In this document: positions 7,377 through 25,910 of the stretch, piece after piece
Layout: each line of letters opens with the position of its first letter
Numbering within the stretch: the first letter of the stretch is position 1
IMG/VR virus record: IMGVR_UViG_3300032272_000065
Coordinates: 1 to 25,910 of that record
Reading direction: 5' to 3' (one strand)
Length of the DNA stretch: 25,910 bases
From: a virus
Taxonomy: Duplodnaviria > Caudoviricetes
The notes under the pieces: generated by a model
Database searches by the model: none
What the model was told of the DNA's origin: nothing
Seen by the model: only the letters and a program-made list of their open reading frames with translations
Translations under genes and position numbers: made by a program

Positions 7377-7930
7377 TGGTACTAAACGTAGAAGATGCCT
7401 TTGATATTGACTTTGATACACTTGGGTTGGCTAGAAATCCCGCTACCGATGCAACACCAAGCACAACCACGAGTTTTAATTTGAGTTCATTGTTGACAGC
7501 CTCGCAGGGGATAACCTCTCTGGCTAGTATGTATGTAACGTCACAAGCCTCAAAGATTAGGCAGTTGACGTATGAGCATAACGCAATAATGGCCGAACAT
7601 GCTAAATACTGGATTGATAGAGCGGTAGCCGCAGATGTCGCCACGGTAAGAGAACAGGGTCGGCAGATATTAGGCACTGCTAGGGTCGCCGGTGCTTCCT
7701 CTGGATTTGCGCTTGACTCGGTATCACAGCAGAACATAGAATCAGCTACTATCCGTTCAGTTGAGCAAGATGTTGCGGCACTTAAAATAGCTGGGGAGGT
7801 TGAGGCTTTTAATCTGTCCTCCGAGGCTTCGGCCTCTCTGGCTGCCGCTTCTGCCGAAGAAAACAGCAGCAATCTACAGAACATTAGCACACTGTTATCG
7901 ACTACCAAAAACATATTGGATGGGATATAA
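7376..7930 (+). CDS. Internal virion (ejection) protein, gp14-like
   Basis: Ala/Ser-rich helical protein with GRQILGTARVAGASSG motif; follows the nozzle gene. Confidence 0.65.
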   Translation: MVLNVEDAFDIDFDTLGLARNPATDATPSTTTSFNLSSLLTASQGITSLASMYVTSQASKIRQLTYEHNAIMAEHAKYWIDRAVAADVATVREQGRQILGTARVAGASSGFALDSVSQQNIESATIRSVEQDVAALKIAGEVEAFNLSSEASASLAAASAEENSSNLQNISTLLSTTKNILDGI

Positions 7931-8112
7931 TGGCACGAATGAGCAAAGAAGAGCTGGCTGATGTTGGTAAGTGGAGCAATAAGTCTCAAGCCTCTAAAGG
8001 TGGTACTGTGAATCATGTGTTAAGCGATGCCGCGAAAGAAACTTATGAAAATATGAAAAAGTATTGCGGCTGCCCTATGGGACAACGATGCGGGTGTAAA
8101 GAATGCCAGTAA
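7930..8112 (+). CDS. Small protein with Cys-rich C-terminus
   Basis: 60 aa ORF filling the gap exactly, TAATG overlap upstream; ends CGCPMGQRCGCKECQ. Confidence 0.55.
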   Translation: MARMSKEELADVGKWSNKSQASKGGTVNHVLSDAAKETYENMKKYCGCPMGQRCGCKECQ

Positions 8113-12700: not shown

Positions 12701-13750
12701 CACCAAGAAAAAGACCTGTCTGACATACTCAAGGCTAGGTTTAATGAAGTGGGTACTACCGGCGTTCTGGGGCTATACAAGAACCTGTCATATATTGATA
12801 CTATGGGGTCGGTTGCTTCGGCTGTTACTCAAATAGGTGATATCGCATGGTCATTGTATCAGAATGGCGTTGCTTATACCGCTGATGGAGTGATTAAAGC
12901 ATCAACCGGAAAGTCAGCTATTACCAGAGAAGATATTGGCGTTGAGAGAATAGCCGCTGAATTTGCGGATCAGACAAAGGCGGCCAAGGCAGTATCAAAA
13001 GTATTTAAGATTATTGGCCTTGAGAAGATGGACGCTATAGGAAAAGAGACTTTGCTTCATGCGTCATGGACTAAGTTTAAAAATAGAGCCAAGCGCAGCC
13101 CTGCAAAACTACGGAAAGAATTGCAGCCAATCTTCGGCGATAGGACAGACCAGTTAATGACTGACCTCGAAGAAGGTACTATCACCGAAGATGTTAAGCT
13201 GTTGATGTTTAACAAGCTGGCTGACTTCCAGCCCATAACATTGTCAGAAATGCCTCAAAAGTATTTAACCGGTGGTAACGGACGTATATTTTACATGCTG
13301 AAGACTTTCACGATAAAATCATTTGATATTTACCGGCGTGAAGTATTCCAGCAGATAGCGAATAAAGATACTAGGGCCCAGGGGATCACTAATCTAGTCC
13401 GTCTTGCTTCTTATTTTGTATTCGCTAATGCTACTGCTGATGTGATTAAGGCTATTATCCTAAACAGACCAATAGAGCCAGATGATTTGGCGGTTGATAA
13501 TCTCCTTAGGCTTTTCGGTATATCTAAGTTTGTTACATGGAAAGCAAGAGAGGAGGGCTTAGGTGTTGCAGCTCGTGGGCAGATATTCCCACCAACTAAG
13601 CTTATAAACGCACTAAGTAAAGATATTAATACCGCTGGTGATGAAAAGGGACTTGAGACAGTATCGTCAATTCCGGTCTTTGGTAAATTATATTATTGGT
13701 GGTTTGGGAAAGGCAAAAAGAAGTCCGACAGAAGGAGAAATAAAAAATGA
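9776..13750 (+). CDS. Large internal virion (ejection) protein, gp16-like
   Basis: ~1324 aa with a Gly-rich hydrophobic segment near the N-terminus; TGATG coupling; precedes the tail fibre. Confidence 0.75.
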   Translation: MARSIEEILAAAEQFSQEEDVVETSPQADDGRLSGILAKAKQFKPVKEIPELTEAPAPSLFSQAKEFFADPAKEKAIATQAMVDSQIFGISLSDAYNKRFAIDHDAKITPERAAIRETAYSIFTKNYKTANTGLQRDYLYSQQIYDENPQRQRKIDEYNQAMAETGEIGLPESRVQDILEATGKTLPFMVNTASNGQWLGLAAGLGGFALGTATLGPEAGIPLGVEFYGAGVTTGSLMYSAQVMAGSNYRELLEFESESGEKINKGVAKFGALASGSLMGLVEVAQMKTLFKSFGGDKALAGVVSKTLANLSESGAVTQAIVRFGGVYGTTLATETKQEVQQEMIKIVGDELSKVATNYLDGKNIERATTKDVVSQLATTITESIKGLGLVSGLGPAARFGGDIAKVSTAKIDAARIEKAIADEVEQEKVIDEVVTTDEATTEAVREELQSVVDENDIQDYQNIVAQAGVIAEERVDAIFQADRDEINKRAEAEGVAIAAEDPIQQVMSSAVEQGGILLTDQIQADYGETITEIIKKRPGLFSKKGTLVLDEIAVDEAGFDTEADFINAVAEVATKKDTVAKLSPELAAEELGAVDQFEEEFRQEVLLQEETKAISELLATEKPELRAELDKIVASIPSGVSVSAIERKQLTEAFAEAKAAQRSGDDAVFQEAKDKIAGLVDKFKVDSRAIPESSYQENREAVEPTILATATRDAKDIVKQIGKGVDRYLGSISTRLANISPKLKYVLREFEFQVGVKEAEMVRASEPFFAKVQKMEKGDMADFDLARKNADTTKINELLDKYEMATEYAAVREVLNKLHADAVSVGFDIGFIEEFNPRYITDMKGFLEHFQKGDDWSVISDAIRGKEAELGHYLDFQEKAQFINSMLRGYGQGNITLSKPSVLKERKIDTITPELNKFYSTSEAALLNYIHETNSAIEARRFFGKKAKPENVGENDDTIGSFVLDLIQSGEIKAHQEKDLSDILKARFNEVGTTGVLGLYKNLSYIDTMGSVASAVTQIGDIAWSLYQNGVAYTADGVIKASTGKSAITREDIGVERIAAEFADQTKAAKAVSKVFKIIGLEKMDAIGKETLLHASWTKFKNRAKRSPAKLRKELQPIFGDRTDQLMTDLEEGTITEDVKLLMFNKLADFQPITLSEMPQKYLTGGNGRIFYMLKTFTIKSFDIYRREVFQQIANKDTRAQGITNLVRLASYFVFANATADVIKAIILNRPIEPDDLAVDNLLRLFGISKFVTWKAREEGLGVAARGQIFPPTKLINALSKDINTAGDEKGLETVSSIPVFGKLYYWWFGKGKKKSDRRRNKK

Positions 13751-14760
13751 CAGTACCAAGCGAAGCGAATCCGGTTCAATCATGGGACGGTGATGATGTA
13801 ACGGTTGCTTTCTCAATATCAACCTATTCATTCCTTGCGGTTACTGATATTACAGTGGCTCGTACCGATACTGACGGAACTAGCACCACATTAACGAAAG
13901 ATGCAGCCGGTGAGGATGGTTACACCTTGTCAGGGACAACCATTACTATGAACACGGCTCCCGCTACAGGCGAGGAGTTGGTTGCAACCAGAGATACTAC
14001 CAGAACACAGCTACTTGATTTGGTCAATAATAGGTCAAGCAACCCTGATAATCTGGAAACGGCTCTTGACCGGTTAACGTACATAACGCAGGAAAACAAC
14101 TACAACAGCGTTAGCCAAGCTGTTCGGGCTGATAGTTCGGTAACAGATACACCAGATTTAACATTTGCTGGCACAGCGGCGTATAGGGCTGACAGATATA
14201 TTGGTTTTGATAGCTCTGGTGATATCGCGTTATTGGCGGCATTGGCCGGGTCGGCACTTCTTGACGAAGATAACATGGCCAGCGATTCTAACACCCAGGG
14301 GGCAACGCAGCAGAGCATCAAGGCTTATGCTGACGCTATTACAGCTGCGATGACAGCTCGATACCCAGCGGGGATGATATGCCTTTGGTCTGGGGCTATT
14401 TCAGATATCCCAGCGGGGTTTGCTTTATGTGACGGGTCAAACGGCACTCCACCTCTAACAGACCGCTTTATACTACATGCTGATGCTGATACCGGTGGCA
14501 CTAACGATGTTGGAGATACAGGGACAGGTGCAGGTACATCTGAAGATTACACATTAGAGATAGGGGATATCCCAAACCATTCACATTCAACCCCTGGCAA
14601 TATTGGTACTGGTTCTGGTATTTCTTCTGGTGCTGACTTTGCAGGGAATGCTTCTTTAACCTCTGGAGCTTCTGGTGGTGGTGGGGCTCATGCCCATGGG
14701 ATAAATAACGCTAACTACAAACCTAAATATTATGCACTTGCATATATAATGAAACTATAG
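13747..14760 (+). CDS. Tail fibre protein (T7 gp17-like anchor plus collar domain)
   Basis: GDDVTVAFSI...F, LETALDRLT anchor; collar motif PAGMICLWSG...IPAGFALCDGSNGTPPLTDRF; ends PKYYALAYIMKL. Confidence 0.88.
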   Translation: MTVPSEANPVQSWDGDDVTVAFSISTYSFLAVTDITVARTDTDGTSTTLTKDAAGEDGYTLSGTTITMNTAPATGEELVATRDTTRTQLLDLVNNRSSNPDNLETALDRLTYITQENNYNSVSQAVRADSSVTDTPDLTFAGTAAYRADRYIGFDSSGDIALLAALAGSALLDEDNMASDSNTQGATQQSIKAYADAITAAMTARYPAGMICLWSGAISDIPAGFALCDGSNGTPPLTDRFILHADADTGGTNDVGDTGTGAGTSEDYTLEIGDIPNHSHSTPGNIGTGSGISSGADFAGNASLTSGASGGGGAHAHGINNANYKPKYYALAYIMKL

Positions 14761-14767
14761 GTGTATT

Positions 14768-15394
14768 ATGAAACGGATATTATTTACAGTATTGTTACTG
14801 GCATTTACGACAAACGTATGTTTAGCAGATGATAGAAACTCCACTCAATTCAAGAGGGATCCCACAACTGGTAGTATTGCGTCAGTTGACTATCCACATC
14901 TAGAGATACACTCTGGCAGTGCGTATAATGTTCATGATTATGACCTCACATTGGCAGCTGATGAAAACCTTAATGTATGCTTCACTACTCCAGACACCTC
15001 CAAGTGGTTCCATTTAACTGTTGGTTATTCATGCTCTTTGGCGTGTACTGCTCAAATATTATCTGGGTCAACTGTAACCGCTAATTCAGGTACAGAAACC
15101 GCTCCAATGAATCACAATGGTAACTCTTCTAAAACCAGCACCGCCTATGATTTGCAGACTGTTCCGGTAATAAACAGTGTTAGTATAGGAGCGACCATCA
15201 CAGTTGATGGTACTGAATTACATGGAGAAGTAATAGGGGCCGCAAAGTCACAAGGTGGAACCGTTGGTGGTGGAGAAAGGCACGAGTATATACTGGAACA
15301 GGGGGTTACACATTGCATCAGATTGTTGCGGGATTCCACTGTAGGTAATTCTATAAGCTCGTTAGAGGTTAACTGGTATGAACACACCAACTAG
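14768..15394 (+). CDS. Hypothetical beta-rich protein with signal-peptide-like N-terminus (paralog 1)
   Basis: MKRILFTVLLLAFTTNVCLA leader; similar along its length to the next ORF; ends YEHTN. Confidence 0.75.
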   Translation: MKRILFTVLLLAFTTNVCLADDRNSTQFKRDPTTGSIASVDYPHLEIHSGSAYNVHDYDLTLAADENLNVCFTTPDTSKWFHLTVGYSCSLACTAQILSGSTVTANSGTETAPMNHNGNSSKTSTAYDLQTVPVINSVSIGATITVDGTELHGEVIGAAKSQGGTVGGGERHEYILEQGVTHCIRLLRDSTVGNSISSLEVNWYEHTN

Positions 15395-15401
15395 ACATAT
15401 T

Positions 15402-16010
15402 ATGAAAATTAAATTACTGCTACTCATACTGCTATTTGCAACACCATGTTTTGCCGGTGACAGGAACCACACCCAATTTGGGAAAGACACTAGCACCGGT
15501 TCGATTTTAGCTATTGGCTATGCTCACCATGAGATACATGAGGGTAACTCTTTTGTTGCAGGTTCGTCCGGTATTCTTGCTAACGAGGCATCCTTAAAAA
15601 TATCATTCAGGACACCAGACACGGATAAATGGTCTCACTTTAATTACGCGGCTGCTTGTTCATTAGACGCTACATTAACATTTACTGAGAATCCTACTGT
15701 TACCGTTAATACCGGATCTGCGCTCCCGATATACAATAACAATAGAAATTCAACCAATACATCTATTTTACTTGGATCTTCTACCGGTGTGTACGTTGCT
15801 AACAGCTTAACATTGGGAGCAACAATGTCAGGTGGTACATCCATAAAGCCTGTGGTACATCTAGGAAGTGGCAAGAAAACTGGTGGTGGTGCTAGTTCTT
15901 TCACTGAAGCTGTTCTAAAACAGAACGAAGATTACTCGGTTGTGCTGACTAGCGAGGCCGCAGATAACCATTGTTTTCTTGAGATATATGAATATGAACA
16001 TACAAACTGA
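15402..16010 (+). CDS. Hypothetical beta-rich protein with signal-peptide-like N-terminus (paralog 2)
   Basis: MKIKLLLLILLFATPCFA leader; start set at 15402 by alignment with paralog 1; ends YEHTN. Confidence 0.75.
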   Translation: MKIKLLLLILLFATPCFAGDRNHTQFGKDTSTGSILAIGYAHHEIHEGNSFVAGSSGILANEASLKISFRTPDTDKWSHFNYAAACSLDATLTFTENPTVTVNTGSALPIYNNNRNSTNTSILLGSSTGVYVANSLTLGATMSGGTSIKPVVHLGSGKKTGGGASSFTEAVLKQNEDYSVVLTSEAADNHCFLEIYEYEHTN

Positions 16011-16018
16011 GGTGTAAC

Positions 16019-16285
16019 ATGGCTGGCCCTGGTGACAACTTTAAGAAAGATGACCAATACTACCCGTATTCTCACGGAGACTTACAGGTACGCCTCGCTT
16101 ATGATGCGAATGGGAATGTTGAGTATGTAGGGTACGGTTTACCTGGAGCGTTAGATAGTGATGAAAAATGGCAGATCGAGAAGTTTACGTACACTTCTGG
16201 CAAGATTGTAAGTGGTAAATATGCTGGCGGTTCTAATATATACGACAAGGAATGGGATGAAAGAGCATCTTATTCATATAGTTAA
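16019..16285 (+). CDS. Small tail-module protein with a YD-like motif
   Basis: YDANGNVEYVG...WQIEK...WDERASYSY; GAGGTG RBS. Confidence 0.7.
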   Translation: MAGPGDNFKKDDQYYPYSHGDLQVRLAYDANGNVEYVGYGLPGALDSDEKWQIEKFTYTSGKIVSGKYAGGSNIYDKEWDERASYSYS

Positions 16286-16294
16286 GGTGGTATA

Positions 16295-17074
16295 ATGGAT
16301 AAAGCTATTTTTGATCCACTATTAAAATCGTTAAAAACTGACGGTGGTTTGTCTAGCTTGATAACCTCAAGTCGTGGCATTAATGAGGTGGGCAGCGTAG
16401 GCACTGATACTGTTATTGATTGGGCTAATGGTGGGGTTCAGATTATCACCGTTACTGCCGTTATCAATATCACATTTACAGGATGGGACACGTTAATAGC
16501 TGACGGTGAAGCTCAGTCCGGCACATTAATTATCATTGACTCAGGCGACTGGAACCCAACATGGTCAACGCTGCTTCAGACCGAGGGCGAAGCAGATTTT
16601 ACCTACACGGCAGACAAGGCAATTGTGCTTGAGTTCCTTAATGTCGAAGGTGGCGACTATGTGCCTTATGGCGGTTGGCAGGTTGCAGCCGATACTTATT
16701 TGACATTAGGCACCGAGCTTGTTGATGATCCTAGCTTCGATGATACCGCAGATTGGACTGAATCTGGTAACATGTCAGTTACGGGCGGCCAGTTAGTCTT
16801 AACCGCTGCAACGTCAGAGACTACGGTGGAAGCCGCACCATTAACCGCTGTAGCCACAGCATCATATCTAGTCGTTACCGTGATAGACGAGGTGACAACG
16901 GCTGGCGGTGGTGTTAAGATGAACGTAGGCAGTACAGACGGGGCCACATATACAACGGTAGGCACGAAAGCCGAGGTTATTGTGGCCACTGATACTGACG
17001 GCCTTGAGATAATCGCAGCAGGGGCCGCAATGACGGCTAAAATTGGCTCGGTATCAGTGAAGAGGTTATACTAA
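16295..17074 (+). CDS. Putative tail fibre/spike accessory protein with a carbohydrate-binding-like C-terminal domain
   Basis: IDWANGGVQ..T motif and LGTELVDDPSFDDTADW motif; Thr/Gly/Val-rich. Confidence 0.6.
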   Translation: MDKAIFDPLLKSLKTDGGLSSLITSSRGINEVGSVGTDTVIDWANGGVQIITVTAVINITFTGWDTLIADGEAQSGTLIIIDSGDWNPTWSTLLQTEGEADFTYTADKAIVLEFLNVEGGDYVPYGGWQVAADTYLTLGTELVDDPSFDDTADWTESGNMSVTGGQLVLTAATSETTVEAAPLTAVATASYLVVTVIDEVTTAGGGVKMNVGSTDGATYTTVGTKAEVIVATDTDGLEIIAAGAAMTAKIGSVSVKRLY

Positions 17075-17601
17075 TGCCTGATTACGGTAAATTTAAAGAT
17101 GATGTTCTGGTTGAGGAAATAACTTTCACTCGCAAATTTGTGCCGGTCGGTGGCCGTAAAGCATCAAACCACTCGCCACAATGGATGAAGAAGCACGGCT
17201 ATGTCCCATATATTAAGCCAACTGTCTTGGATGGTGAGTATGAAGGGGTTGAAAATATACCAACAAAGGAAAACAGTGTCATAGTATCTTACACTCACGC
17301 CATAAAGACCAAGGATTATTCGACTATAAGGGCTGAGATAACTAGTGCAATAGAATCAAAAGCATACGCCCTTGTTTCTTCAGTGAATAGCTCTATTATC
17401 GATACAGCAGCAAAAACAAAAGTGAACGATTTAGTATCCTCTAAGTGCAAAGGGCTGTTGCTTGAACTTGCAGAAACTACCGATATCAACCTTAAATATT
17501 TCGATTACACATCGACATGGGATGGTATAGAAGACTTTGGGACAATAGACCTTACTGAAAGCACATGGACAAAACTTAAACGTTATATGTTCGGGGTTTA
17601 A
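17074..17601 (+). CDS. Hypothetical protein, possibly tail fibre assembly
   Basis: 175 aa, translationally coupled, lies between fibre-like genes. Confidence 0.6.
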   Translation: MPDYGKFKDDVLVEEITFTRKFVPVGGRKASNHSPQWMKKHGYVPYIKPTVLDGEYEGVENIPTKENSVIVSYTHAIKTKDYSTIRAEITSAIESKAYALVSSVNSSIIDTAAKTKVNDLVSSKCKGLLLELAETTDINLKYFDYTSTWDGIEDFGTIDLTESTWTKLKRYMFGV

Positions 17602-18279
17602 ATGTTACATCATGCAATGCGGAGAGTCGTGGCTGGTGCTGGATCTGATGAGTTTACAGTGCTGCACGTTCCATCTAATACTACAGATGGAGACACTACG
17701 TTTATAGATACATCTCCATCTAACCACACAATAACCCCGAATGGTGCATTTGCACACAAGACAGCGCAATCTTATTCAGGAGCATCTAGCTACTTATCTG
17801 CCGCTAGTACGTCATACGGTACTATGACTGATAGTTTAACTGACTTCGTTTTAGGGGATACATTTTTCATAAACTTCCAAGTCTATTTTAATGTTGCTAC
17901 GGGTAATCAATACTTTATAGGGTATGGTGGAGGATATGCTGGATGGCGTGGCACTGACGGTCATGTATTCACTGTTTTTAAACTTGGAACAAATATATTC
18001 TATTTCCAATTTTGGAACGGATCAGCAATACGATCAATCTCGTTTTCGTGGACTCCTTCAGCTAGTCAATGGTACAATATAGAAATTTCCTGTAATAATG
18101 GGGCATTTTCTATAGATATTGATACTGTGGAAAAAGTTACTTCGTCAGGGGTAAGTGTATCTGACGTAACAACACCATTAAGGCTTGCTATGTGTAGCCT
18201 TGCTAATTTAGGAACAACAGCAAACAACTTTTATATGGATAATCTTATCATTAGAAAAGGGATTTCAACAGGGCTTTAA
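17602..18279 (+). CDS. LamG/concanavalin A-like lectin domain protein (putative receptor binding)
   Basis: DGDTTFIDTSPSNHTIT, DFVLG..F.I.F.VY, QWYNI, and YMDNLIIRKG motifs. Confidence 0.75.
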   Translation: MLHHAMRRVVAGAGSDEFTVLHVPSNTTDGDTTFIDTSPSNHTITPNGAFAHKTAQSYSGASSYLSAASTSYGTMTDSLTDFVLGDTFFINFQVYFNVATGNQYFIGYGGGYAGWRGTDGHVFTVFKLGTNIFYFQFWNGSAIRSISFSWTPSASQWYNIEISCNNGAFSIDIDTVEKVTSSGVSVSDVTTPLRLAMCSLANLGTTANNFYMDNLIIRKGISTGL

Positions 18280-18325
18280 AAGTTTATAGCTAAATATATA
18301 ATTAATCAATGATCCGGTGGGTTGA

Positions 18326-18613
18326 ATGGCAGAATGTGACGGTTGTGTAAAGAGTGGGCACAGGTTATTAGTTCAAGTAGTCATGGGATCTATATTCGTT
18401 CTCGCTGTAAGCGGTATCTTGTCATGGAAATCAGCTTTTGCGAAGGATGACCGTGATGACAAACAAGAGCAAATGATAGCAGTAATGCAGACAACACTGA
18501 CCCAATACGTCAAGAATTCAGAAGAAACCCGTTCTGACATTAAGGAGCTGGCACAAATTACCATGCAGATGAACCTCAATCTACAAACTCACATCGCGGC
18601 GACAAGTAAATGA
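18326..18613 (+). CDS. Membrane protein with one TM segment and a coiled coil (holin/antiholin-like)
   Basis: Hydrophobic LLVQVVMGSIFVLAVSGILSW; lies directly upstream of the endolysin. Confidence 0.6.
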   Translation: MAECDGCVKSGHRLLVQVVMGSIFVLAVSGILSWKSAFAKDDRDDKQEQMIAVMQTTLTQYVKNSEETRSDIKELAQITMQMNLNLQTHIAATSK

Positions 18614-18945
18614 GCCTCAGAGAGAACCAAAGCCGTTTCGCGTTAAATGTTGCGTTCCTAATTCTTGAAGCGGAGAAACTAGGCTACGAGGTGACGCTAG
18701 GTGACTCTTTCAGAGACCCTAGGGTTTTCGGTAAGGTTGGAGAGAAGAAAGGTTATAGCCACAAGAACAGCACTCATAAATCACGCCTTGCCATTGACCT
18801 TAACCTTTTTAAAGACGGTCGATATATTACTGATTCAGAAGGGCATGACAAGTTACATGACTTCTGGGTCGATAAATGCGGTGGTTCTCCGATGATTAAA
18901 GGTGATCCGAACCACTATTCATACAAGCATAATGGGGTATCATAA
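18610..18945 (+). CDS. Endolysin, peptidase M15 family
   Basis: GYEVTLGDSFRDP, S.HKSRLAIDLNLFKDG (H-x6-D) and DPNHYS zinc-ligand motifs. Confidence 0.88.
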   Translation: MSLRENQSRFALNVAFLILEAEKLGYEVTLGDSFRDPRVFGKVGEKKGYSHKNSTHKSRLAIDLNLFKDGRYITDSEGHDKLHDFWVDKCGGSPMIKGDPNHYSYKHNGVS

Positions 18946-19448
18946 TGGGTATAGATCTAACTGGGATTTCAGGTGTAACAGATTTAGCTGGTGGGATTAT
19001 GGATCGCTTCTGGCCTAAGAAGATGGACGAAGGTGAAAAGGCATCGGCTAAACTTGGCATGATATCCATGATTAAAGGGTTTCAAGCTAAAAGTGACGAG
19101 GCAAAAAAAAGTGTAATGGTTGCCGAGTTGAATCAAGGTGATGTTTACACTAAACGAGCGAGGCCGACAATTGTCTATGGCGGTTTAGCTATAATATTCA
19201 TTAACCATGTAATATTCCCAATGTTTGCATGGTGCGTTGGTGTGGCTACTGTTCTATTTGCTGGGACAATAACTCCAGAGTTGACCAATGCCCTAGTGTT
19301 GCCTTCTTTCTCTCTCCCTGCCGCGTTTTGGGCATCATGGACAGGAGTTACAGGTGTTTATTCTATTGGAAGGTCAATGGAGAAACGTGGCGTTACTGGC
19401 ATGGGCGGGAAAATAGCCAGTATGATTACCGGCAATAAACAACCTTAA
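18945..19448 (+). CDS. Holin, 3TM/GTA-holin-like family
   Basis: AELNQGDVYTKRARP, hydrophobic segments, GVYSIGRSMEK; follows the endolysin. Confidence 0.8.
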   Translation: MGIDLTGISGVTDLAGGIMDRFWPKKMDEGEKASAKLGMISMIKGFQAKSDEAKKSVMVAELNQGDVYTKRARPTIVYGGLAIIFINHVIFPMFAWCVGVATVLFAGTITPELTNALVLPSFSLPAAFWASWTGVTGVYSIGRSMEKRGVTGMGGKIASMITGNKQP

Positions 19449-19450
19449 AT

Positions 19451-19484
19451 AAAAAAGGCCGGGGCAATTCAAACCCCGGCCTTT
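19451..19484. terminator. Bidirectional intrinsic terminator between the convergent late and early modules
   Basis: AAAGGCCGGGG-caattcaaa-CCCCGGCCTTT perfect 11 bp stem; the A6 run gives a U tract on the - strand. Confidence 0.9.
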
Positions 19485-19527
19485 ACGCTCACAGCAATTA
19501 TATATTTCTAACCCCTCCTGTTTTGGT

Positions 19528-19866
19528 TTAACTCCAATCAGATAAAACCTTTCCTATCTGGCCACATATCCATTTAGCAAACCTTGTAGCAGACCAACCG
19601 TTGCGCCACTTCTCATTATTTAGGTACACGTTTACCTTGCCGCTGCCATTATTAATTTCATGCTTAATCTCAATATGGTTGCGTTGCTCAGTTATTGGGT
19701 TGTATGTATTCACCACGAAAAGCAGGGTAGTTTCTACCGATCTTTCCGGGCCGAATTTAAGCGCATTGGATAATCGGCCAATTTCTGACCGCCTCTGTGA
19801 CTCAATGCCTCCTAACCTACCACGGTTACGCTTCTTTTCGTATGTCGCATAATTAGGGTAACTCAT
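19528..19866 (-). CDS. Hypothetical basic protein
   Basis: 112 aa ORF, last gene before the terminator on -; no tyrosine recombinase motifs seen. Confidence 0.7.
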   Translation of the reverse strand: MSYPNYATYEKKRNRGRLGGIESQRRSEIGRLSNALKFGPERSVETTLLFVVNTYNPITEQRNHIEIKHEINNGSGKVNVYLNNEKWRNGWSATRFAKWICGQIGKVLSDWS

Positions 19867-19873
19867 AATTTCC

Positions 19874-19892
19874 AGTTAACAAGTAGTTATGT
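19874..19892 (+). other. attI-like simple site
   Basis: AGTTAAC-aagta-GTTATGT: inverted L and R boxes with a 5 bp spacer and no attC hairpin, at the 5' end of the attC array. Confidence 0.65.
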
Positions 19893-19894
19893 GT

Positions 19895-20104
19895 TCAGTC
19901 TGCTATAAATTCCCAGGTGTCATCACCGCACTGTACGGTATTAGGTTTTAGGGTGTTGCCTCTTATTCTCTGTACCCCATCCCTGTCGCCACATATTTTC
20001 TCCGCTTTCCTCAATTGGTGGGGGGTTATATCAGTGCAGCCCACACATAACAAAAAAATCAAGCAGATTGCCAGAACGGGTGCGAGTTTAGTTAATTTTC
20101 TCAT
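19895..20104 (-). CDS. Small lipoprotein (cassette 1)
   Basis: Signal peptide with lipobox LCVGC; AGGAG RBS inside attC1. Confidence 0.8.
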   Translation of the reverse strand: MRKLTKLAPVLAICLIFLLCVGCTDITPHQLRKAEKICGDRDGVQRIRGNTLKPNTVQCGDDTWEFIAD

Positions 20105-20168
20105 GTCAATTACTCCTGTGTTTAAGTGCCGCCACCATCTGGCAACGGCTTATTATAGGTCGTTAAAT
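20045..20168 (+). other. attC-like site 1 (124 bp)
   Basis: ACATAAC-5-AATCAAGC...TTGCCAGA / TCTGGCAA...GCTTATT-7-GTTAAAT; near-identical to site 8. Confidence 0.88.
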
Positions 20169-20396
20169 GCCTGTTTCAAAGAAACTTGTTTTCCCGCATT
20201 GCCAGCAATGGGCAGTATAAAATTTTACAGACCAGTGTTTCTCGTCAGGTTCTTCTCGGTCATAAAATACTTCAAACTTCTCAACACTTCTCGAAAGCAC
20301 ACTATCCACGGCGCAGTGCTGGCATTTAACCAGCGTATCAACGCGGACTTCGTCCACGGTTGCGGGTTGCGTCATTATTACTTTTTTAACGTCCAT
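20163..20396 (-). CDS. Small zinc-ribbon-like protein (cassette 2)
   Basis: CQHC and CWQC motifs; GGGGTG upstream of the ATG at 20396 (alternative start 20417); stop overlaps the GTTA core. Confidence 0.7.
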   Translation of the reverse strand: MDVKKVIMTQPATVDEVRVDTLVKCQHCAVDSVLSRSVEKFEVFYDREEPDEKHWSVKFYTAHCWQCGKTSFFETGI

Positions 20397-20455
20397 TTTT
20401 ATCACCCCATCACACATAGCTTGTCACCCCTCGCCGGTTATCCTTAATGTTAAAT
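20324..20455 (+). other. attC-like site 2 (132 bp)
   Basis: ATTTAAC-5-TATCAACGCGG ... CCGGTTATC-6-GTTAAAT. Confidence 0.78.
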
Positions 20456-20464
20456 GCCGCCAAA

Positions 20465-20704
20465 TTATTGTTTCATTTCAGCTAACATACCCCGTAAAAC
20501 TTCCACGCTGCCTCTCAACCATTCAGGAGTAGTCTTGTTATTTTCAAGCCTCTCCAGAATTACGGTAGTCAAAGTGGTTGCCATAAATAATTTGTTGGCA
20601 TTTAACCCGTCAATTAAGCGGGAATTACTGGCTTGGTGTTCATCTAAACACACAGCACACACAGCTACGTTAGCTTCTCTTAATTTACATATTGGGCAAA
20701 TCAT
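20465..20704 (-). CDS. Small protein with N-terminal CxxC...CxxC (cassette 3)
   Basis: MICPICK...VCAVC; GGGGA RBS before the ATG at 20704; the longer track ORF overlaps the next gene. Confidence 0.7.
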   Translation of the reverse strand: MICPICKLREANVAVCAVCLDEHQASNSRLIDGLNANKLFMATTLTTVILERLENNKTTPEWLRGSVEVLRGMLAEMKQ

Positions 20705-20732
20705 CGTAATCCCCTTATTGCTATCGTTATAA
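20600..20732 (+). other. attC-like site 3 (133 bp)
   Basis: ATTTAAC-5-AATTAAGCGGGAATTAC ... GTAATCCCCTTATT-6-GTTATAA. Confidence 0.85.
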
Positions 20733-20906
20733 ACCTGCCAAATTATCAAGGTTAACCAAAACCTCCATCTCCTTGTTGTCCTTGTCTGCAACGCATATCC
20801 CAACATCTTCATCAAGATAAATTTCGCAGTTATATTCTTCCAGCAAGGCTAATATTTTCTCGGTAAATTCGTCAACATCTCGCCATCCCTCAACTCTTCT
20901 TTTCAT
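20727..20906 (-). CDS. Small acidic hypothetical protein (cassette 4)
   Basis: MKRRVEGW...; AAGGTG upstream of the ATG at 20906; stop overlaps the GTTA core. Confidence 0.65.
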   Translation of the reverse strand: MKRRVEGWRDVDEFTEKILALLEEYNCEIYLDEDVGICVADKDNKEMEVLVNLDNLAGL

Positions 20907-20929
20907 CCTAATCACCTTCCCGTATGGGT

Positions 20930-21015
20930 TTATAACAAAATAATTAATCTGAGCCGTACAAGTAAGCGGCCTGCGGTATTTCTCCGTGGCGGCCAGCTTA
21001 TTATCGGCGTTATAA
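20930..21015 (+). other. attC-like site 4 (86 bp)
   Basis: TTATAAC-5-AATTAATCTGAGCCG ... CGGCCAGCTTATT-6-GTTATAA. Confidence 0.83.
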
Positions 21016-21040
21016 ACCCGTTCTAACAGGTTGGGCAGGG

Positions 21041-21619
21041 CTAGTTCGTTTTGTTGGCCCATTGCTCAACAATCGCCTTTGCCACACCGTCAAACGTTTT
21101 ACTCCTGTCCCGTTTCCGGGTTTCGCTTGGGGGCATCTTCCACACTCGCTGTTCTCTACCGTCCACAATGTTTGTCGGCTTCAGTGGCTCCAAGTTGTGC
21201 AGAGCAAATCCGGTCTTTTTAGTTTCTCCGTGTCCATGCTCCCACGGTTGCAGATAAAAAACGTTCGGCAAGTGGCTAAATATTACGCTCACGGGGTTTT
21301 CAAGCGCCACCCTGTCACTGTGCAGTACAGCCAGTTCCCAAAGCCGCTTAGTCCATTCTACTTGTGCCAGCCGCTTGTCGTTCATCGGCATCCCTTTTCC
21401 GTACCACCTGTTTCCACTCACAGCCATTGCGGTGCAGTCAGGGTGCAATATTATCAAATCCCAATATCTGGATGGCACTACCTGCATTATGTCCTGTTGC
21501 AAGTGCCATTCTGGGTTTCCCCTTGTCGGCTCAAGGTCACAGCTAAAAGCCTCGTGTTCTGCTTCCCGCAATGCTTTTGTAATTGTCTGGCTCTCTTCAC
21601 ACCCGACTAAAACAATCAC
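21041..21619 (-). CDS. Short phage DNA cytosine methyltransferase-like protein (cassette 5)
   Basis: VLVGCEES, SCDL, WDLIILHPDCT, ALENP, QPWEHGHGETKKT and RSKTF.GVA.AI..QW motifs. Confidence 0.8.
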   Translation of the reverse strand: MIVLVGCEESQTITKALREAEHEAFSCDLEPTRGNPEWHLQQDIMQVVPSRYWDLIILHPDCTAMAVSGNRWYGKGMPMNDKRLAQVEWTKRLWELAVLHSDRVALENPVSVIFSHLPNVFYLQPWEHGHGETKKTGFALHNLEPLKPTNIVDGREQRVWKMPPSETRKRDRSKTFDGVAKAIVEQWANKTN

Positions 21620-21936
21620 TCTTCCAGCCCCATCAGCAAAGAAAATTCATACCTGATCTTTCTAGTCCTTTCTTTAATCCCATCATTGTACGAAGCGTGG
21701 CAGAGATAAATACAAGCCTCTATATCCTCATTTGTCCAATGTGATGGCACACCCATCAGAAGCTCCCCTTTTTTGGGGCAATTAAAATGTTTTCTTGATT
21801 CATCGCTAATCCCTAGATATACCCCATCAATATCACCAAGGTGCTTAGACTTTTCTCTGGTTATCCCCAGATCACTAATCATTTTCAATCCGTACTCTTT
21901 AACTCTCTTTATAAAAAGACCGTTAGTTTTAATCAT
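21616..21936 (-). CDS. Hypothetical protein (cassette 5)
   Basis: AAGGAGG RBS before the ATG at 21936 (MIKTNGLF...); GTGA overlap with the methyltransferase start. Confidence 0.75.
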   Translation of the reverse strand: MIKTNGLFIKRVKEYGLKMISDLGITREKSKHLGDIDGVYLGISDESRKHFNCPKKGELLMGVPSHWTNEDIEACIYLCHASYNDGIKERTRKIRYEFSLLMGLEE

Positions 21937-21991
21937 GCTGTCCTCCTTTAAAGCATATGTATTACTGTTCAATTGCCCGTTAACCTTCGGT

Positions 21992-22078
21992 TTATAACAA
22001 ACAAAATCACTCTGACCGCAAGAACGGTTGCGGCCCCACTTTAGTTCGGTGGGCGGCAGGTGTTTTGCGGCGTTATGT
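21992..22078 (+). other. attC-like site 5 (87 bp)
   Basis: TTATAAC-5-AAATCACTCTGACCGC ... GCGGCAGGTGTTT-6-GTTATGT. Confidence 0.83.
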
Positions 22079-22270
22079 TTCTTCCAAATAATCAGGGTGG
22101 ATATCTTCTGTATTACATTCAATGTCCATATCCTCACCCATTATATCGGCAAGTCCATCAGCAGTATGGTACGTCAAAGGTACACACACAGGTTCGTCTT
22201 TAAGTATGTCAATTACACGAAACTGTCCGTCACAGTAATCAGGCTCTATTCTATATCTTTTTATTTTCAT
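22073..22270 (-). CDS. Small acidic hypothetical protein (cassette 6)
   Basis: AAGGAGGT RBS; stop overlaps the GTTA core. Confidence 0.8.
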   Translation of the reverse strand: MKIKRYRIEPDYCDGQFRVIDILKDEPVCVPLTYHTADGLADIMGEDMDIECNTEDIHPDYLEET

Positions 22271-22283
22271 AATACCTCCTTAA

Positions 22284-22340
22284 ACATAACCAAAAATTCA
22301 AGCGGACGTAAGACACGCCGCTTAATATAGCACGTTATGT
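22284..22340 (+). other. attC-like site 6 (57 bp, minimal 59-be type)
   Basis: ACATAAC-caaaa-ATTCAAGCGGACGT-aagac-ACGCCGCTTAAT-7-GTTATGT; unpaired C and A on top give extrahelical G and T on the bottom strand, as in canonical attC. Confidence 0.92.
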
Positions 22341-22610
22341 TTAAATCTTTTTCCAACCGACAACTTCAATGTTATCTAATTTGTCCAGATCAATATCAAC
22401 ATTTTGCTTGCATGTCGGTTGGCATAATAACCAGCCGTTTTCTCCATCTGGAGGCCAACATACATATTGCCATTCAATACCTTCTCGTTCTTTGCATAAA
22501 ACAAGCACTTGGTCGTCTATATCGTCAGGGATATTCTTAGGGTCAAGCCAACATAACCCGCCGCTTAACGCTGAATTGCTAATGGTTGCGGTTTTAGTTT
22601 CTTCGGTCAT
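22341..22610 (-). CDS. Small hypothetical protein (cassette 7)
   Basis: 89 aa; GGAG and ATG inside attC7; W...P....QVLV...W..V.GW pattern. Confidence 0.75.
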   Translation of the reverse strand: MTEETKTATISNSALSGGLCWLDPKNIPDDIDDQVLVLCKEREGIEWQYVCWPPDGENGWLLCQPTCKQNVDIDLDKLDNIEVVGWKKI

Positions 22611-22680
22611 AGCATCATCTCCAGTTGTTTTATTAATTATCAGTCGCTAACCCGCAATCAGGTTAGCTATTTCGTTATGT
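22551..22680 (+). other. attC-like site 7 (130 bp)
   Basis: ACATAAC-5-GCTTAACGCTGAATTGC ... GCAATCAGGTTAGC-6-GTTATGT. Confidence 0.87.
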
Positions 22681-22682
22681 TC

Positions 22683-22985
22683 TTACCGTTTTTTCCTTCT
22701 TACGGTAGCCGTTCCGCTGCTTGATGATAGCGCACCAACTCCAATGGCAAAGCCAAAGTCATACCACCCACCGTTATTATATATGGCATAAATTGCGGTG
22801 CTATCCGAAAACAGTGATACAAGCCAAGAGAATGGTAAAATCATTCCATGCCACAAACCATACCAAAATCCTACTGGCTGTATAGTTGCGGCACTGTTAA
22901 ATGTGGCGTGGTCGGCGCAGCCAGAACATAACAAAAAAATAAAGCAGATTGCCAGAACGGGTGCGGTTTTAATCATTGCTTTCAT
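22683..22985 (-). CDS. Membrane-associated lipoprotein (cassette 8)
   Basis: Lipobox LCSGC; hydrophobic GFWYGLWHG...NNGGWYDFGF domain; AGGAG RBS inside attC8. Confidence 0.85.
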   Translation of the reverse strand: MKAMIKTAPVLAICFIFLLCSGCADHATFNSAATIQPVGFWYGLWHGMILPFSWLVSLFSDSTAIYAIYNNGGWYDFGFAIGVGALSSSSGTATVRRKKR

Positions 22986-23047
22986 GTCAATTTCTCCTGT
23001 GTTTAGGTGCCACCACCATCTGGCAACGGCTTATTAAATCGTTATGT
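22926..23047 (+). other. attC-like site 8 (122 bp)
   Basis: ACATAAC-5-AATAAAGC...TTGCCAGA / TCTGGCAA..GCTTATT-5-GTTATGT; near-copy of site 1. Confidence 0.88.
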
Positions 23048-23245
23048 TCTAAAAAGGATGCGATTGTCTGGAGCATATTTCGGCTCAGATCGTTCTCGCT
23101 CCATTGGTATTTCTTTACCGTGCGGCTCTTTCGGTGTTGCCCCGCAGCTGGTGCATGTTGGTGTTGGTGGGTAAATTCCTCCCCAGTTACTTGGCACCAT
23201 CACGGCACCGCCACATAATGAGCATGTTCCAATAGTAGTATCCAT
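23042..23245 (-). CDS. Small zinc-ribbon protein (cassette 9)
   Basis: CSLCGG...CTSCGA; AAGGAG RBS; stop overlaps the GTTA core. Confidence 0.8.
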   Translation of the reverse strand: MDTTIGTCSLCGGAVMVPSNWGGIYPPTPTCTSCGATPKEPHGKEIPMERERSEPKYAPDNRILFRT

Positions 23246-23266
23246 CTTTCGAGTCTCCTTTTTAAA

Positions 23267-23359
23267 ACATAACCAGCCTAATTAAAGCAGACGGCTAGAA
23301 GTTTTGCGGCCCATAAGGGGATTTCCTTTTGGGGCCGCTGTTTATTAGCAATGTTGGGC
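23267..23359 (+). other. attC-like site 9 (93 bp)
   Basis: ACATAAC-5-TAATTAAAGCAGACGGC ... GCCGCTGTTTATTA-5-GTTGGGC. Confidence 0.85.
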
Positions 23360-23386
23360 TGCACATACAGTCACAGCCCGTCAGGT

Positions 23387-23674
23387 TTAAACTTCTGCCC
23401 TATCCAGCACGTTGTTTATGCGGTCAATGGAGTTCTCAATAGTCTCCAGTTTCTCCCGCATTTCACTAAACAGTGGGGGGTATTCTCTGGCAACCTTGTC
23501 GCAGCCATCAGGAGATGGGCAGGCAGATTGACATATTGGGTGCAGTTTATCGGCAGTCCTGCAAGCTACCTTCTCTGCTGCGCTGGCAAGTCTGTCTAGG
23601 GCGTTCATAACCTCACGTGCTATCGGGTCTTGTGCGGGTGCTACACATGCTTTACCACTATTACAGTCATCCAT
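23387..23674 (-). CDS. Helical-hairpin/coiled-coil hypothetical protein (cassette 10)
   Basis: 95 aa; GGAGG RBS. Confidence 0.8.
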   Translation of the reverse strand: MDDCNSGKACVAPAQDPIAREVMNALDRLASAAEKVACRTADKLHPICQSACPSPDGCDKVAREYPPLFSEMREKLETIENSIDRINNVLDRAEV

Positions 23675-23700
23675 CTTAAATATCCTCCGTTAAATTAAAA

Positions 23701-23787
23701 GCCCAACCAGTCTAATTAACTCAGACAGGGAGAACTCATGCGGCCTCACCACCATTGGTGGCCCGCTGGTTATTAGTTTTGTTAAAA
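23701..23787 (+). other. attC-like site 10 (87 bp)
   Basis: GCCCAAC-cagt-CTAATTAACTCAGACAGGG ... CCCGCTGGTTATTAG-tttt-GTTAAAA. Confidence 0.85.
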
Positions 23788-23796
23788 AACGCGGAT

Positions 23797-24027
23797 TTAT
23801 TTTTCTATCTGTATGCCATCCCTCAATATATCTTCGGCTAACCAACCGTGGTACTTCCCAGCATCATGTTTTTCAGTATCGGCAATTATCAGTTCAGCTG
23901 TTAGTATTTCGTCTTTTTCAAACATTTTACCCGGCAAAAAACCGATCACCATTGTCACATCCTGTCCGTCTATTGACTTTCTCGGCCCAACATATAGTTT
24001 GGCTGGTATTGGTAAATATTCGTTCAT
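23797..24027 (-). CDS. Small hypothetical protein (cassette 11)
   Basis: 76 aa; GGAGGT RBS. Confidence 0.8.
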   Translation of the reverse strand: MNEYLPIPAKLYVGPRKSIDGQDVTMVIGFLPGKMFEKDEILTAELIIADTEKHDAGKYHGWLAEDILRDGIQIEK

Positions 24028-24052
24028 ATTAGTACCTCCGTGGCGCTATGTT

Positions 24053-24110
24053 TTTTAACCAAAAATTCAAGCGGACGTGTACCACGCACGCTTAATATCG
24101 GTCGTTATGC
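24053..24110 (+). other. attC-like site 11 (58 bp, minimal type)
   Basis: TTTTAAC-caaaa-ATTCAAGCGGACGTG...CACGCACGCTTAAT-7-GTTATGC; related to site 6. Confidence 0.9.
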
Positions 24111-24112
24111 CG

Positions 24113-24355
24113 CTAAAATTTATCTGATTTTCCTGTAAATGGCGTTGTGTATCTAATTCCTATGTTCCCAAAACCATCAACATCACGGCAGACCATGTGC
24201 CATCCAACAATAGGCTCGGTTATATACTCTTCGGCAGTCATTACCTTATGTGCGGCATAACCAGTAAATTCAGGCGAAAAGCTAACGCTTGCGGCCTTGC
24301 TACATTCCGCGCATACAACTCGTCCGTTCATATAATCTTCGCATTGGCAACTCAT
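24113..24355 (-). CDS. Small protein with Cys-rich N-terminus (cassette 12)
   Basis: MSCQC...VCAEC; same GGGGATTACGATG start context as cassette 3. Confidence 0.7.
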   Translation of the reverse strand: MSCQCEDYMNGRVVCAECSKAASVSFSPEFTGYAAHKVMTAEEYITEPIVGWHMVCRDVDGFGNIGIRYTTPFTGKSDKF

Positions 24356-24383
24356 CGTAATCCCCTTATCTCAATCGTTCAAT
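24255..24383 (+). other. attC-like site 12 (129 bp, degenerate/chimeric, terminal)
   Basis: GCATAAC-5-AATTCAGG ... CCTTATC-6-GTTCAAT; right arm shares TCATCGTAATCCCCTTAT with site 3; inner arms pair poorly. Confidence 0.65.
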
Positions 24384-24804
24384 CTTCGGGAAACAACAAT
24401 TCAACCCGCCCAACATAATGTAATTGCATCGCCTCAAGACCACGAGCAAGCTGCTTAGTTTTCATCAAAGATGTTACTGGCAGGATCTCCATAGCCTTGA
24501 TCTTACTCTCGTATGGCAAAGGGTCAATCACGGCCTCACATGTGGCGTTAAACTCCGCATCCTCACCTCTTAGTATTGGCAAAAAGATATGCAGCTTACA
24601 GAGGCATTTTACCCCGTTGTCGGTGTATTCCATTTCCTCTAGTGCTACCTGTGTGCACCACGCATGTAAGAGCGCGTTCTGGTTAAGTGTTCGCGCCTTG
24701 CCAGTGCTTATGGTCACGGTTACGAACTTCTTTTCCTTGAACGCCTTTTTAAGCTGACCGATACACTCTGACAATGTGCGGGTGCTATTTACTTTAAGCT
24801 TCAT
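24379..24804 (-). CDS. ninB: NinB-like recombination accessory protein
   Basis: RTLNQNALLHAW motif, PILR and VTSLM.TKQL...LE pattern; 141 aa. Confidence 0.65.
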   Translation of the reverse strand: MKLKVNSTRTLSECIGQLKKAFKEKKFVTVTISTGKARTLNQNALLHAWCTQVALEEMEYTDNGVKCLCKLHIFLPILRGEDAEFNATCEAVIDPLPYESKIKAMEILPVTSLMKTKQLARGLEAMQLHYVGRVELLFPED

Positions 24805-24806
24805 GG

Positions 24807-25118
24807 TTAATCGTTCCCGTAAAATGATATGAACACATTTTTGTCAGATTTAGGATGCACCGACACAAAGTTAAGATCTTCATGGTAATCAATATCGCAA
24901 CTCCTAAGATTAAACCCAATACCACCCCTTCCGTAACCACCAAACAAACTAGTCCCTTCGCTCCTCACTGTAATCCTGTCGTCAAAAACCTCAAATTGGG
25001 TCGGCCTACCCTTCTTGTTCATGATTAGAAAATGATCGCATCCGCAGAACCTAAGTCTAAACCCTATCTTACTAAGCATCCCCGCCAACTTGTCAGTGTG
25101 TTCTGGCAAAACATCCAT
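24807..25118 (-). CDS. Hypothetical protein
   Basis: 103 aa; GGAGG RBS; tightly packed in the operon. Confidence 0.75.
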   Translation of the reverse strand: MDVLPEHTDKLAGMLSKIGFRLRFCGCDHFLIMNKKGRPTQFEVFDDRITVRSEGTSLFGGYGRGGIGFNLRSCDIDYHEDLNFVSVHPKSDKNVFISFYGND

Positions 25119-25122
25119 CTTG

Positions 25123-25392
25123 TCAACCTCCTCCGTTAAATTCTGTGCAAGTAGTTTCTGGGATTAAATAACCAGAGCTGTCTATAGTCATGCCCAGAGT
25201 TCTTGTTGAGTTCATCGACGTGCAATTATTCCATACCTCAAGCACTGCGGCTATGTTCCTTTGCTTCTCCGTTATGACTGCGGCTTTGGTTATGTCGATA
25301 TTGTTTTGCCGCAATATAGGGCCTAGAAGCAATCCTGTTATGATGACTACACATATAAATATGAAAAACGCTCTTAATGGATTATCTCTCAT
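25123..25392 (-). CDS. Small membrane-anchored protein
   Basis: N-terminal TM segment AFFIFICVVIITGLLLG; AAGGT RBS. Confidence 0.75.
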   Translation of the reverse strand: MRDNPLRAFFIFICVVIITGLLLGPILRQNNIDITKAAVITEKQRNIAAVLEVWNNCTSMNSTRTLGMTIDSSGYLIPETTCTEFNGGG

Positions 25393-25416
25393 GTTGTTAC
25401 CTTGTAAGGGGTGGGG

Positions 25417-25647
25417 TTAATAGTTGCCATCATTCAAAACACGGCACAGTCTACCGCCATGTATCGGCAGAGGTTTAAGGTTGTTATTTGTTAACTCAGA
25501 CCCATCTGACGCTAAACCGGTCAACCCGCAATTCTTCAACTCCTTAACTAGCCAGTGCAAAGCTACCGCCTCGCTCTCAGCCACAACTACAGCGGCGCAC
25601 CCAACTGGCCAGTGACCTTCAAAGTCTGTGCATGTCCAAGCTCTCAC
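25417..25647 (-). CDS. Small phage hypothetical protein
   Basis: GTG start with GGAGG RBS; FEGHWPVG.AAVVVA motif. Confidence 0.75.
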   Translation of the reverse strand: MRAWTCTDFEGHWPVGCAAVVVAESEAVALHWLVKELKNCGLTGLASDGSELTNNNLKPLPIHGGRLCRVLNDGNY

Positions 25648-25686
25648 AACCTACCTCCATATTTATACTGGCTTTACTAGCTGGCG

Positions 25687-25893
25687 TTATCTCTTAATGA
25701 ATTGGTACTTCATATGCAGGCCGTCTCGTTTTACCTCTTCAGCATCTCCAATATTAAGGGCTAAATCAATTGTTCTCCTTGCTCGGTTATAACACCACAT
25801 CATCCTTCTCTGAACACATGAAACATTGAAAAGCTGCCCAATCTTAAATGATCTTTTCAGGTCGTACAGATCTTCTTTGCCGTCCATTTTCAT
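25687..25893 (-). CDS. Small basic protein, possible winged helix (FtsK gamma-like pattern)
   Basis: NVSCVQRRMMWCYNRARRTID resembles the S.S.LQR....GYNRAAR..D pattern; AAGGAG RBS. Confidence 0.6.
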   Translation of the reverse strand: MKMDGKEDLYDLKRSFKIGQLFNVSCVQRRMMWCYNRARRTIDLALNIGDAEEVKRDGLHMKYQFIKR

Positions 25894-25910
25894 ATCTCCT
25901 TAAATTTGAA

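Follow-up and report, generated by a model that had tools for sequence, protein, structure and literature searches.

The window analysed here is the whole of virus record IMGVR_UViG_3300032272_000065 (Duplodnaviria; Caudoviricetes), a linear fragment of 25,910 bases that is ~61% complete. Capsid, tail and lysis genes on the + strand fill positions 1–19,450 (Pfam GP7, Bbp16, Bbp19 and holin), a gene set which, going by the Bbp names, we take to be that of a BPP-1-type short-tailed phage. From ~19,900 to 24,400, small genes lie on the - strand with inverted repeats between them. This array holds 12 attC sites and, with at least two attC sites and no intI gene nearby, is a cluster of attC sites lacking an integron integrase (CALIN). 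The subject of this study is the repeated element formed by sites 1 and 8 of the array, each of which heads a gene for a predicted lipoprotein and contains the start of that gene.

Sites 1 and 8 and the proteins they head

Site 1 occupies 20045..20168 on the + strand (R'' at 20045–20051, L'' at 20057–20064 with a bulged C, R' at 20162–20168); its second bulged base is an A and its loop is of the 70-nt class. Site 8 (22926..23047, +; R'' at 22926–22932, R' at 23041–23047) belongs to the same family. In both, an inverse core ending in AAC stands opposite a core starting with GTT, and L boxes with bulged bases on one arm lie 5 nt from R''; site 1 pairs with the adjacent core of the array instead of its own partner, which is how cassettes behave. 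The repeat pair 20031–20155 / 22912–23036 is 86% identical over 125 nt, in line with the near-identity reported in the first-pass annotation, and BLASTN of the two sites against each other spanned positions 4–124 (E 1.6e-40 in a 12-site database).

Read on the - strand, each loop carries a ribosome-binding site (RBS)-like AGGAG, at 20113..20117 in site 1 and 22994..22998 in site 8, each separated by an 8-nt spacer from an ATG (20104 and 22985). This AGGAG-ATG reading had already been proposed. Pairing with the anti-Shine-Dalgarno sequence amounts to -6.9 kcal/mol for site 1 and -7.4 kcal/mol for site 8, against a median of -2.8 kcal/mol for 155 ATGs on the same strand, 19% of which reach -6 kcal/mol. 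An in-frame stop lies within each site (ending at 20150 and 23031), and neither ATG, GTG nor TTG occurs between this stop and the ATG. Open reading frame (ORF) starts outside the two sites are therefore impossible, and the possibility raised earlier, that translation begins outside the attC, falls away. In the RNA fold, RBS and ATG lie within a weakly structured terminal region; ribosomes of the upstream gene, terminating at a stop that overlaps the site, may open it.

The 69-aa predicted lipoprotein (19895..20104, -) and the 100-aa predicted membrane lipoprotein (22683..22985, -) each have residues 1–20 within their site and Cys23 13 nt past the core G. Both signal peptides contain two to three Lys/Arg residues in the n-region and an uncharged hydrophobic h-region, and Gly-Cys is invariant in 32 of 32 aligned homologues. 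Judged by these sequence features, both products are predicted to be lipoproteins that are exported and lipidated. Pfam gave no match at E 0.1 for the predicted lipoproteins, and a look-alike cluster in the Atlas carries the automatic name 'Lipoprotein family protein'.

Past the leader, the two proteins share little. Their BLASTP alignment is limited to residues 1–25, and only residues 1–26 match in a profile-profile alignment (32 and 12 sequences). AlphaFold predicts a small alpha+beta mature domain for the 69-aa protein (pLDDT 85) and an all-alpha one for the 100-aa protein (pLDDT 64, a low value and a weak model); Foldseek of the 69-aa model against the PDB found nothing at E ≤ 0.001. The 100-aa protein is widespread (phrog_30702), with 547 relatives among 551 candidates, 120 of the 547 being listed and inspected. 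For the 69-aa protein 11 homologues were found; a word-indexed search returned its self-match alone, and no viral locus was found for it, so that the DNA behind the leaders of these 11 is unseen. Homologues of both mature domains, which were to be checked for their leaders, mostly carry other ones. That a single lipoprotein gene was duplicated and its mature part then diverged is highly improbable: a Cys23 followed by x-Asp is common to both proteins, but sequence and profile likeness ends there, the predicted folds differ, and the two domains belong to separate families in which other leaders occur. The earlier statement that the mature domains are unrelated is upheld, with the reservation that the fold predicted behind site 8 is a weak model.

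An attC arm lends itself to encoding a signal peptide. Translated in the frame used here, the last seven arm codons of 19 canonical control sites have a mean Kyte-Doolittle value of 1.37 (other frames, -0.45 to 0.94); for 19 inverted sites that lack internal starts, the mean is 1.0. The arm frame is hydrophobic on average even without selection for it. Among the three full coding copies of the element, the paired h-region is 97–100% identical and the RBS-ATG stretch 95–100%; the loop-borne n-region is 58–67% identical and keeps Lys despite this divergence.

Inverted polarity of the array

Orientation was determined with a home-made scanner that scores attC arms separately for each direction and is distinct from IntegronFinder and HattCI. 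At a score of at least 10, it gave 10 matches in 19400–25910, none in 1–19400 and none in 30 shuffles. Sites 1 and 8 both scored 11.4 on the + strand, compared with 4.3 and 5.5, respectively, on the - strand. In 12 of 12 sites (10 high-scoring and two degenerate), it is the left arm of the + strand that carries the bulged bases, and the genes lie on the - strand. This position of the bulges makes + the canonical top strand, to which the genes run antisense. A canonical cassette has its ORF on the top strand and its attC 3' of it; here, all genes are on the bottom strand. The same script found attC sites co-oriented with the genes in two controls, the Vibrio array MK672802 (16 matches in 28873–40487) and the TJE1 cluster (three matches).

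According to PMC5027507 and PMC7439510, cleavage by IntI takes place at R' on the bottom strand and at R'' on the top strand. On the bulge pattern, the AAC core on the lipobox side is R'', and R' is the far end of the site, 43–45 nt upstream of the RBS. Given this inverted arrangement of sites and genes, the standard cut is predicted upstream of the leader and not at the lipobox, with crossovers predicted at 20162/20163 and 23041/23042, 58 and 56 nt upstream of the ATG. Leader and domain should therefore travel as one cassette in routine shuffling. As IntI would define it, cassette 1 is 19887..20162 (+; the inverted 69-aa gene plus site 1) with ends forming a 9-nt inverted repeat, and cassette 8 is 22675..23041 (+; the inverted 100-aa gene plus site 8) with ends forming a 10-nt one. 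Cassette ends are complementary over 8–10 nt in all 12 intervals of the array. End repeats of 10 nt were dismissed as a special feature because the Vibrio control has 8–11 nt in 12 of 13 intervals, the remaining interval having had a wrong end coordinate.

Inverted arrays also occur in phages that do encode an integrase. In three of them (G001, G005 and G006), IntI scores 307–317 bits against TIGR02249, whose cut-off is 265, and the arrays are inverted as in the window; G001 has terminase, portal and capsid genes. Sites are inverted in four of four cases in G001 and seven of seven in L153, and L152 gave one inverted and one opposite match. L153 contains a duplicated cassette beside its IntI, which exceeds the TIGR02249 cut-off. 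The match between the copies runs between consecutive AACs, over an attC plus the downstream gene, which suggests that these two together form the unit of movement. The arrays of the three IntI phages end without a hairpin beside the start of intI, and the array of the window likewise ends without one.

In three phage records (L149:1-3465, L153:1-6975 and L152:1-1969), a full integron integrase is encoded in the same direction as the genes of the cassettes; the short stretches that separate intI from the last cassette resemble one another and are a candidate attI of this lineage. Six inverted attC sites were also seen at L060:314-3243, on a 3.7-kb contig binned as Nitrospiraceae, which may be a prophage or a misbinned phage.

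Reuse of the leader and its joining to cargoes

A metagenome scan for the site gave four loci, namely the two sites of the window, L001 and L002. In L001, a complete copy of the site (87% identical over 121 nt) heads a third unrelated domain with 63 relatives; in three distinct viral loci examined for this domain (of six returned), the leaders are of the ordinary kind and attC is absent. Of the site, L002 retains the right half alone, which is fused to an ORF upstream and heads a fourth domain. A further full-length homologue, L160, has a decayed RBS and an ATG followed by stops, and this dead leader heads a 140-nt cassette. Run X1 yielded one more full copy, which has a different neighbour upstream and whose partner gene is unseen. 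Four of the five known cargoes are lipoprotein-like and one is tRNA-like, and divergence always begins just past the lipobox-side core. The distance from core to Cys in the four lipoprotein-like cargoes is 13, 13, 22 and 16 nt, one frame throughout. In L153, a leader of the non-export type stands on two unrelated domains, with identity stopping at the core. Each cargo keeps an end repeat of its own (9 and 10 nt in the window, 9 and 10 in L153, 9/10 in L160), as expected of an exchange at the core or before it. Exact-pattern scans of viral contigs were empty in two cases, gave nine chance matches out of nine in one and a single true relative in another; distant BLASTN against 50,697 phage records gave none below E 0.4 and none covering 80% among the 20 matches listed.

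The phenomenon is real and more general than two copies. The site is a portable head, as had been suggested, in that it holds the predicted RBS, the start and signal-peptide residues 1–20 and recurs on the lipoprotein-like domains of L001 and L002. The further suggestion, of joining at the lipobox core, is not borne out in that form: this core is R'', whereas the routine IntI cut is at R', and a rarer route would be needed. Joining at this core does not always yield a lipoprotein either, given the tRNA-like cargo and dead leader of L160. The 140-nt cassette of L160 (365-507, -) has a tRNA-like cloverleaf fold to which two further arms are added (z -2.3); it was called by neither ARAGORN nor Rfam and may be a non-coding RNA cassette. 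L001 (868-1296) has the leader cassette and another short attC immediately upstream of genes resembling that of the terminase small subunit, apparently in a different phage type.

The leaders of the 100-aa family were examined in the reverse direction. Loci fetched comprised 45 viral and 80 genome entries, of which the 45 viral and the first 30 genome ones were analysed; after merging of duplicates, and with two left unparsed, 59 distinct loci remained. An end repeat of at least 8/10 nt was found in four of these, at core-to-Cys distances of 22 nt (L014), 10 nt (L017), 34 nt (L018) and 34 nt (L060). The scanner scored the upstream site at 10.7 in L014, 12.3 in L060 and 6.5 in L017 and did not call that of L018, which was accepted as attC-led by its likeness to L060; L015 is decayed and was judged by eye, and P0002 is known as protein only. 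Motifs resembling attC leaders in protein-only matches (19 of 117, 5 of 11 and 7 of 47 parsed) were not counted, the motif being loose and the DNA unseen. The family thus carries four different attC leaders, 10, 13, 22 and 34 nt before the Cys. On a tree of the mature domain, the attC-led members, with L015 and P0002 included, need five changes, 0 of 200 bootstrap trees unite them and the AU test gives p 0.0245; with 76 columns, 61 rows and many open forks, this tree is weak. From these comparisons, the 100-aa gene seems to be mostly free-standing and to have been captured several times, each time within its signal-peptide region.

For a repeat of inverted polarity with an internal start, joined past its core to five unrelated cargoes that have terminal repeats of their own, we consider the following reading rather probable. 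Sites 1 and 8 would be two copies of one attC-type hairpin that heads its own gene back to front; in rare events, an integrase recombining the opposite strand at the core next to the lipobox would have re-joined this hairpin to unrelated genes. The integrase would come from the host or a co-infecting phage and act on the sites in trans, and whole cassettes would move through bottom-strand recombination. Occasionally, top-strand exchange between two R'' cores would swap hairpin bodies among cassettes, the cargo end repeats staying in place. Selection would keep in-frame fusions in which the conserved arm reads hydrophobic; others would decay, as in L160. In this way, an export signal would be restored to lipoprotein genes whose 5' end had been lost at capture, and their proteins would be made and lipidated. 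Top-strand cutting at R'' has been seen for some sites, and a third bulge raises selectivity (PMC5027507); the family of sites 1 and 8 has two bulges.

Several points weigh against such swapping at R''. In the data of PMC5027507, recombination of the top strand lies several orders of magnitude below that of the bottom strand and, for some sites, was undetected; its rate was measured there against attI1 and not between two attC sites. A PF00589 search and tblastn found no tyrosine recombinase in the 25.9-kb record, itself a fragment, which thus has no intI gene to make it a complete integron. Folded as isolated DNA, the coding strand does no better than shuffles (z -0.01 for site 1, -0.88 for site 8 and -0.19 for L001). 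The minimum-free-energy fold contains the full stem in site 8 and L001; in site 1, the R pairing is not in place. A consensus lipobox has Leu, Val or Ile at -3. Both proteins have a Cys at this position, which is imposed by the core sequence; among 117 parsed homologues of the 100-aa protein, Leu occupies it in 90 and Cys in only two. No rearranged joints were found in the contigs of one run, probably that of the source sample, and the reciprocal product, one cassette occurring with either of two attC bodies at the same junction, was not found when 12 other array proteins were compared with the fetched loci, where the shared leader alone matched. L001 and L014 are alike for six codons past the core despite their different domains. 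Finally, the four offsets in the 100-aa family call for separate captures, as swapping alone cannot give them.

These offsets also bear on an alternative to which we give an appreciable chance, although a smaller one than to swapping: the hairpin served as template when each cassette was created, was joined to a GTT in the signal-peptide region of a free-standing gene and had its inverted end copied at the stop, with no later swapping. That attC-led members of the 100-aa family are not one clade and that the family is mostly free-standing agree with this, as does L017, whose gene ends in codons that reverse-complement the junction. Vibrio arrays also place one attC type on many genes, and PMC5371416 terms de novo cassette formation largely unknown. 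No mechanism or enzyme for such templating was found, however, and the supporting tree is weak. Creation leaves room for later swaps and swapping also needs a capture step, so the two are compatible.

An integrase-free route, in which phage recombination proteins exchanged leaders via short homology in the arm or the lipobox, is unlikely. A NinB/Orf-like gene (phrog_7283) flanks the array, adjoining site 12, L002 retains only half the site in its fusion, and the likeness of sites 1 and 8, like that of L001 and L014, extends a few codons past the core; yet full copies run from the R' AAC to the R'' core in independent phages, and the cargo-specific bases 8–10 past the core match the cargo's own far end, a match that a crossover at the Cys would break. 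Less probable still, at a very low level, is that the lipobox core is the normal crossover and routine shuffling places the leader on the next cassette. Similarity does end there in all five cargoes, and the terminal-repeat rule, being symmetric, is blind to which end is cut, but this is contradicted by the bulge polarity of 12 of 12 sites together with two correct controls, by the ends of the L153 duplicate and by the hairpin-less array end, beside intI in the three IntI phages and present in the window.

Other sites of the array and relation to known systems

Half of the 12 sites (122–133 nt) contain an RBS-like motif and an ATG in frame with the next ORF; at the other six (57–93 nt), the following gene has its own strong RBS. 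Besides sites 1 and 8, the first group comprises four sites on the + strand. Site 2 (20324..20455) is degenerate, scoring 6.4 on + and 3.3 on -, and has an internal RBS with an ATG at 20417 or 20396, in frame downstream. Site 3 (20600..20732; internal RBS, ATG 20704) encodes a Cys-rich leader, and its first ~35 nt are common to site 12, the last of the array (24255..24383; degenerate, 6.5 on + and 3.4 on -; internal RBS, ATG 24355). Site 7 (22551..22680; internal RBS, ATG 22610) has a non-export leader. Sites 3 and 12 form a second attC family with an internal start, whose loop encodes a Cys-x-x-Cys leader that crosses the core in different frames; an alternative start at a later ATG ~20 nt beyond the core is possible in both. 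Internal starts are absent from sites 4 (20930..21015, +), 5 (21992..22078, +), 9 (23267..23359, +) and 10 (23701..23787, +) and from the short classical sites 6 (22284..22340, +; 85% like site 11) and 11 (24053..24110, +).

Below cassette 1, the array terminates without a hairpin at 19873..19892 (+), tentatively an attI-like or secondary landing site. Its AAC-5 nt-GTT geometry resembles the Shewanella attI quoted in PMC9892861, although the pattern is loose (three matches per 6.5 kb) and weak evidence alone. The terminus is not attC-like (scores 1.3 and 5.0), and the region 19810–19892 was rejected as an attC. An ORF at 19528–19866 lacks an RBS. The interval between sites 4 and 5 (21041–21936) holds two ORFs, one of them methyltransferase-like (phrog_757), a divergent copy of which lies on another contig of run X1. 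In the tail region, neighbouring ORFs of 208 and 210 aa (14768–16010) are paralogues that are alike at their N- and C-termini. An Rfam scan of the array gave no score near the gathering threshold, no RNA data set carrying the sequence was listed, which has no bearing on whether it is expressed, and a promoter scan of the region found nine matches where 12.8 were expected, i.e., chance level. The top promoter-like match (11/12; 20152–20179, -) lies across the predicted site 1 crossover, with its -35 within the upstream cassette and its -10 within site 1; the -10 is absent in site 8 and present in L160.

Clusters of attC in phages have been published. Those of PMC9892861 resemble the present one in having no integrase, small unknown genes and a DNA methyltransferase-like cassette (phrog_757), and five of six phage attC sites assayed there recombined with IntI1. 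They differ in that TJE1 was canonical in our scan, whereas here every site is inverted and half of them hold the start of the next gene. PMC9892861, in the sections consulted, describes neither inverted arrays nor internal gene starts; its supplements list 17 clusters, which may include inverted ones. Our literature search, with most subscription journals outside its reach, found no report of inverted phage attC arrays or of natural attC-encoded starts or signal peptides. The first-pass annotation is right on the reused head and, by polarity, wrong on the routine core.

Compared with canonical attC cassettes as described in PMC5027507, the R''/L''/L'/R' order and the two bulged bases are the same, and the end repeats of 8–10 nt are like those of the Vibrio control. 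Here, however, it is the coding strand that recombines, the gene runs antisense to the top strand, and the site is a 5' leader instead of a 3' trailer. Signal peptides of the Sec/SPII type share the basic n-region, the hydrophobic h-region and Gly-Cys, and differ by the residue at -3 and by an h-region that does not double as a DNA stem. Short ORFs encoded in attI1 supply translation starts to the first cassette. In that case, too, a cassette without a start obtains one from a recombination site, but attI1 is a fixed platform site, whereas here it is the cassette's own attC that provides the start and adds a signal peptide. Synthetic attC sites have been translated as well and were proposed for the shuffling of protein modules (PMC7439510); those were designed, whereas the sites described here are natural, include RBS and start, and have their standard cut outside the frame.

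These sites are thus a natural counterpart of engineered translated attC sites, with one sequence under three constraints, as hairpin, translation start and signal peptide. Annotation that presumes an attC to trail its gene will misassign such cassettes and their starts. Integron biology has yet to explain how attC sites come to be joined to new genes (PMC5371416). With the joint inside a reading frame that has known free-standing relatives, its position can be narrowed down to a few bases and compared among four separate captures of one gene family. More tentatively, and with a chance we rate below that of swapping and close to that of templated creation, the array may belong to a mirror-image phage integron, in which attC sites are interchangeable N-terminal modules (a start only, a Cys-rich leader or an export signal) and IntI moves cassettes via one core and swaps modules via the other. 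If so, this mirror-image system would build new exported proteins, and the junctions within signal peptides would record the birth of cassettes.

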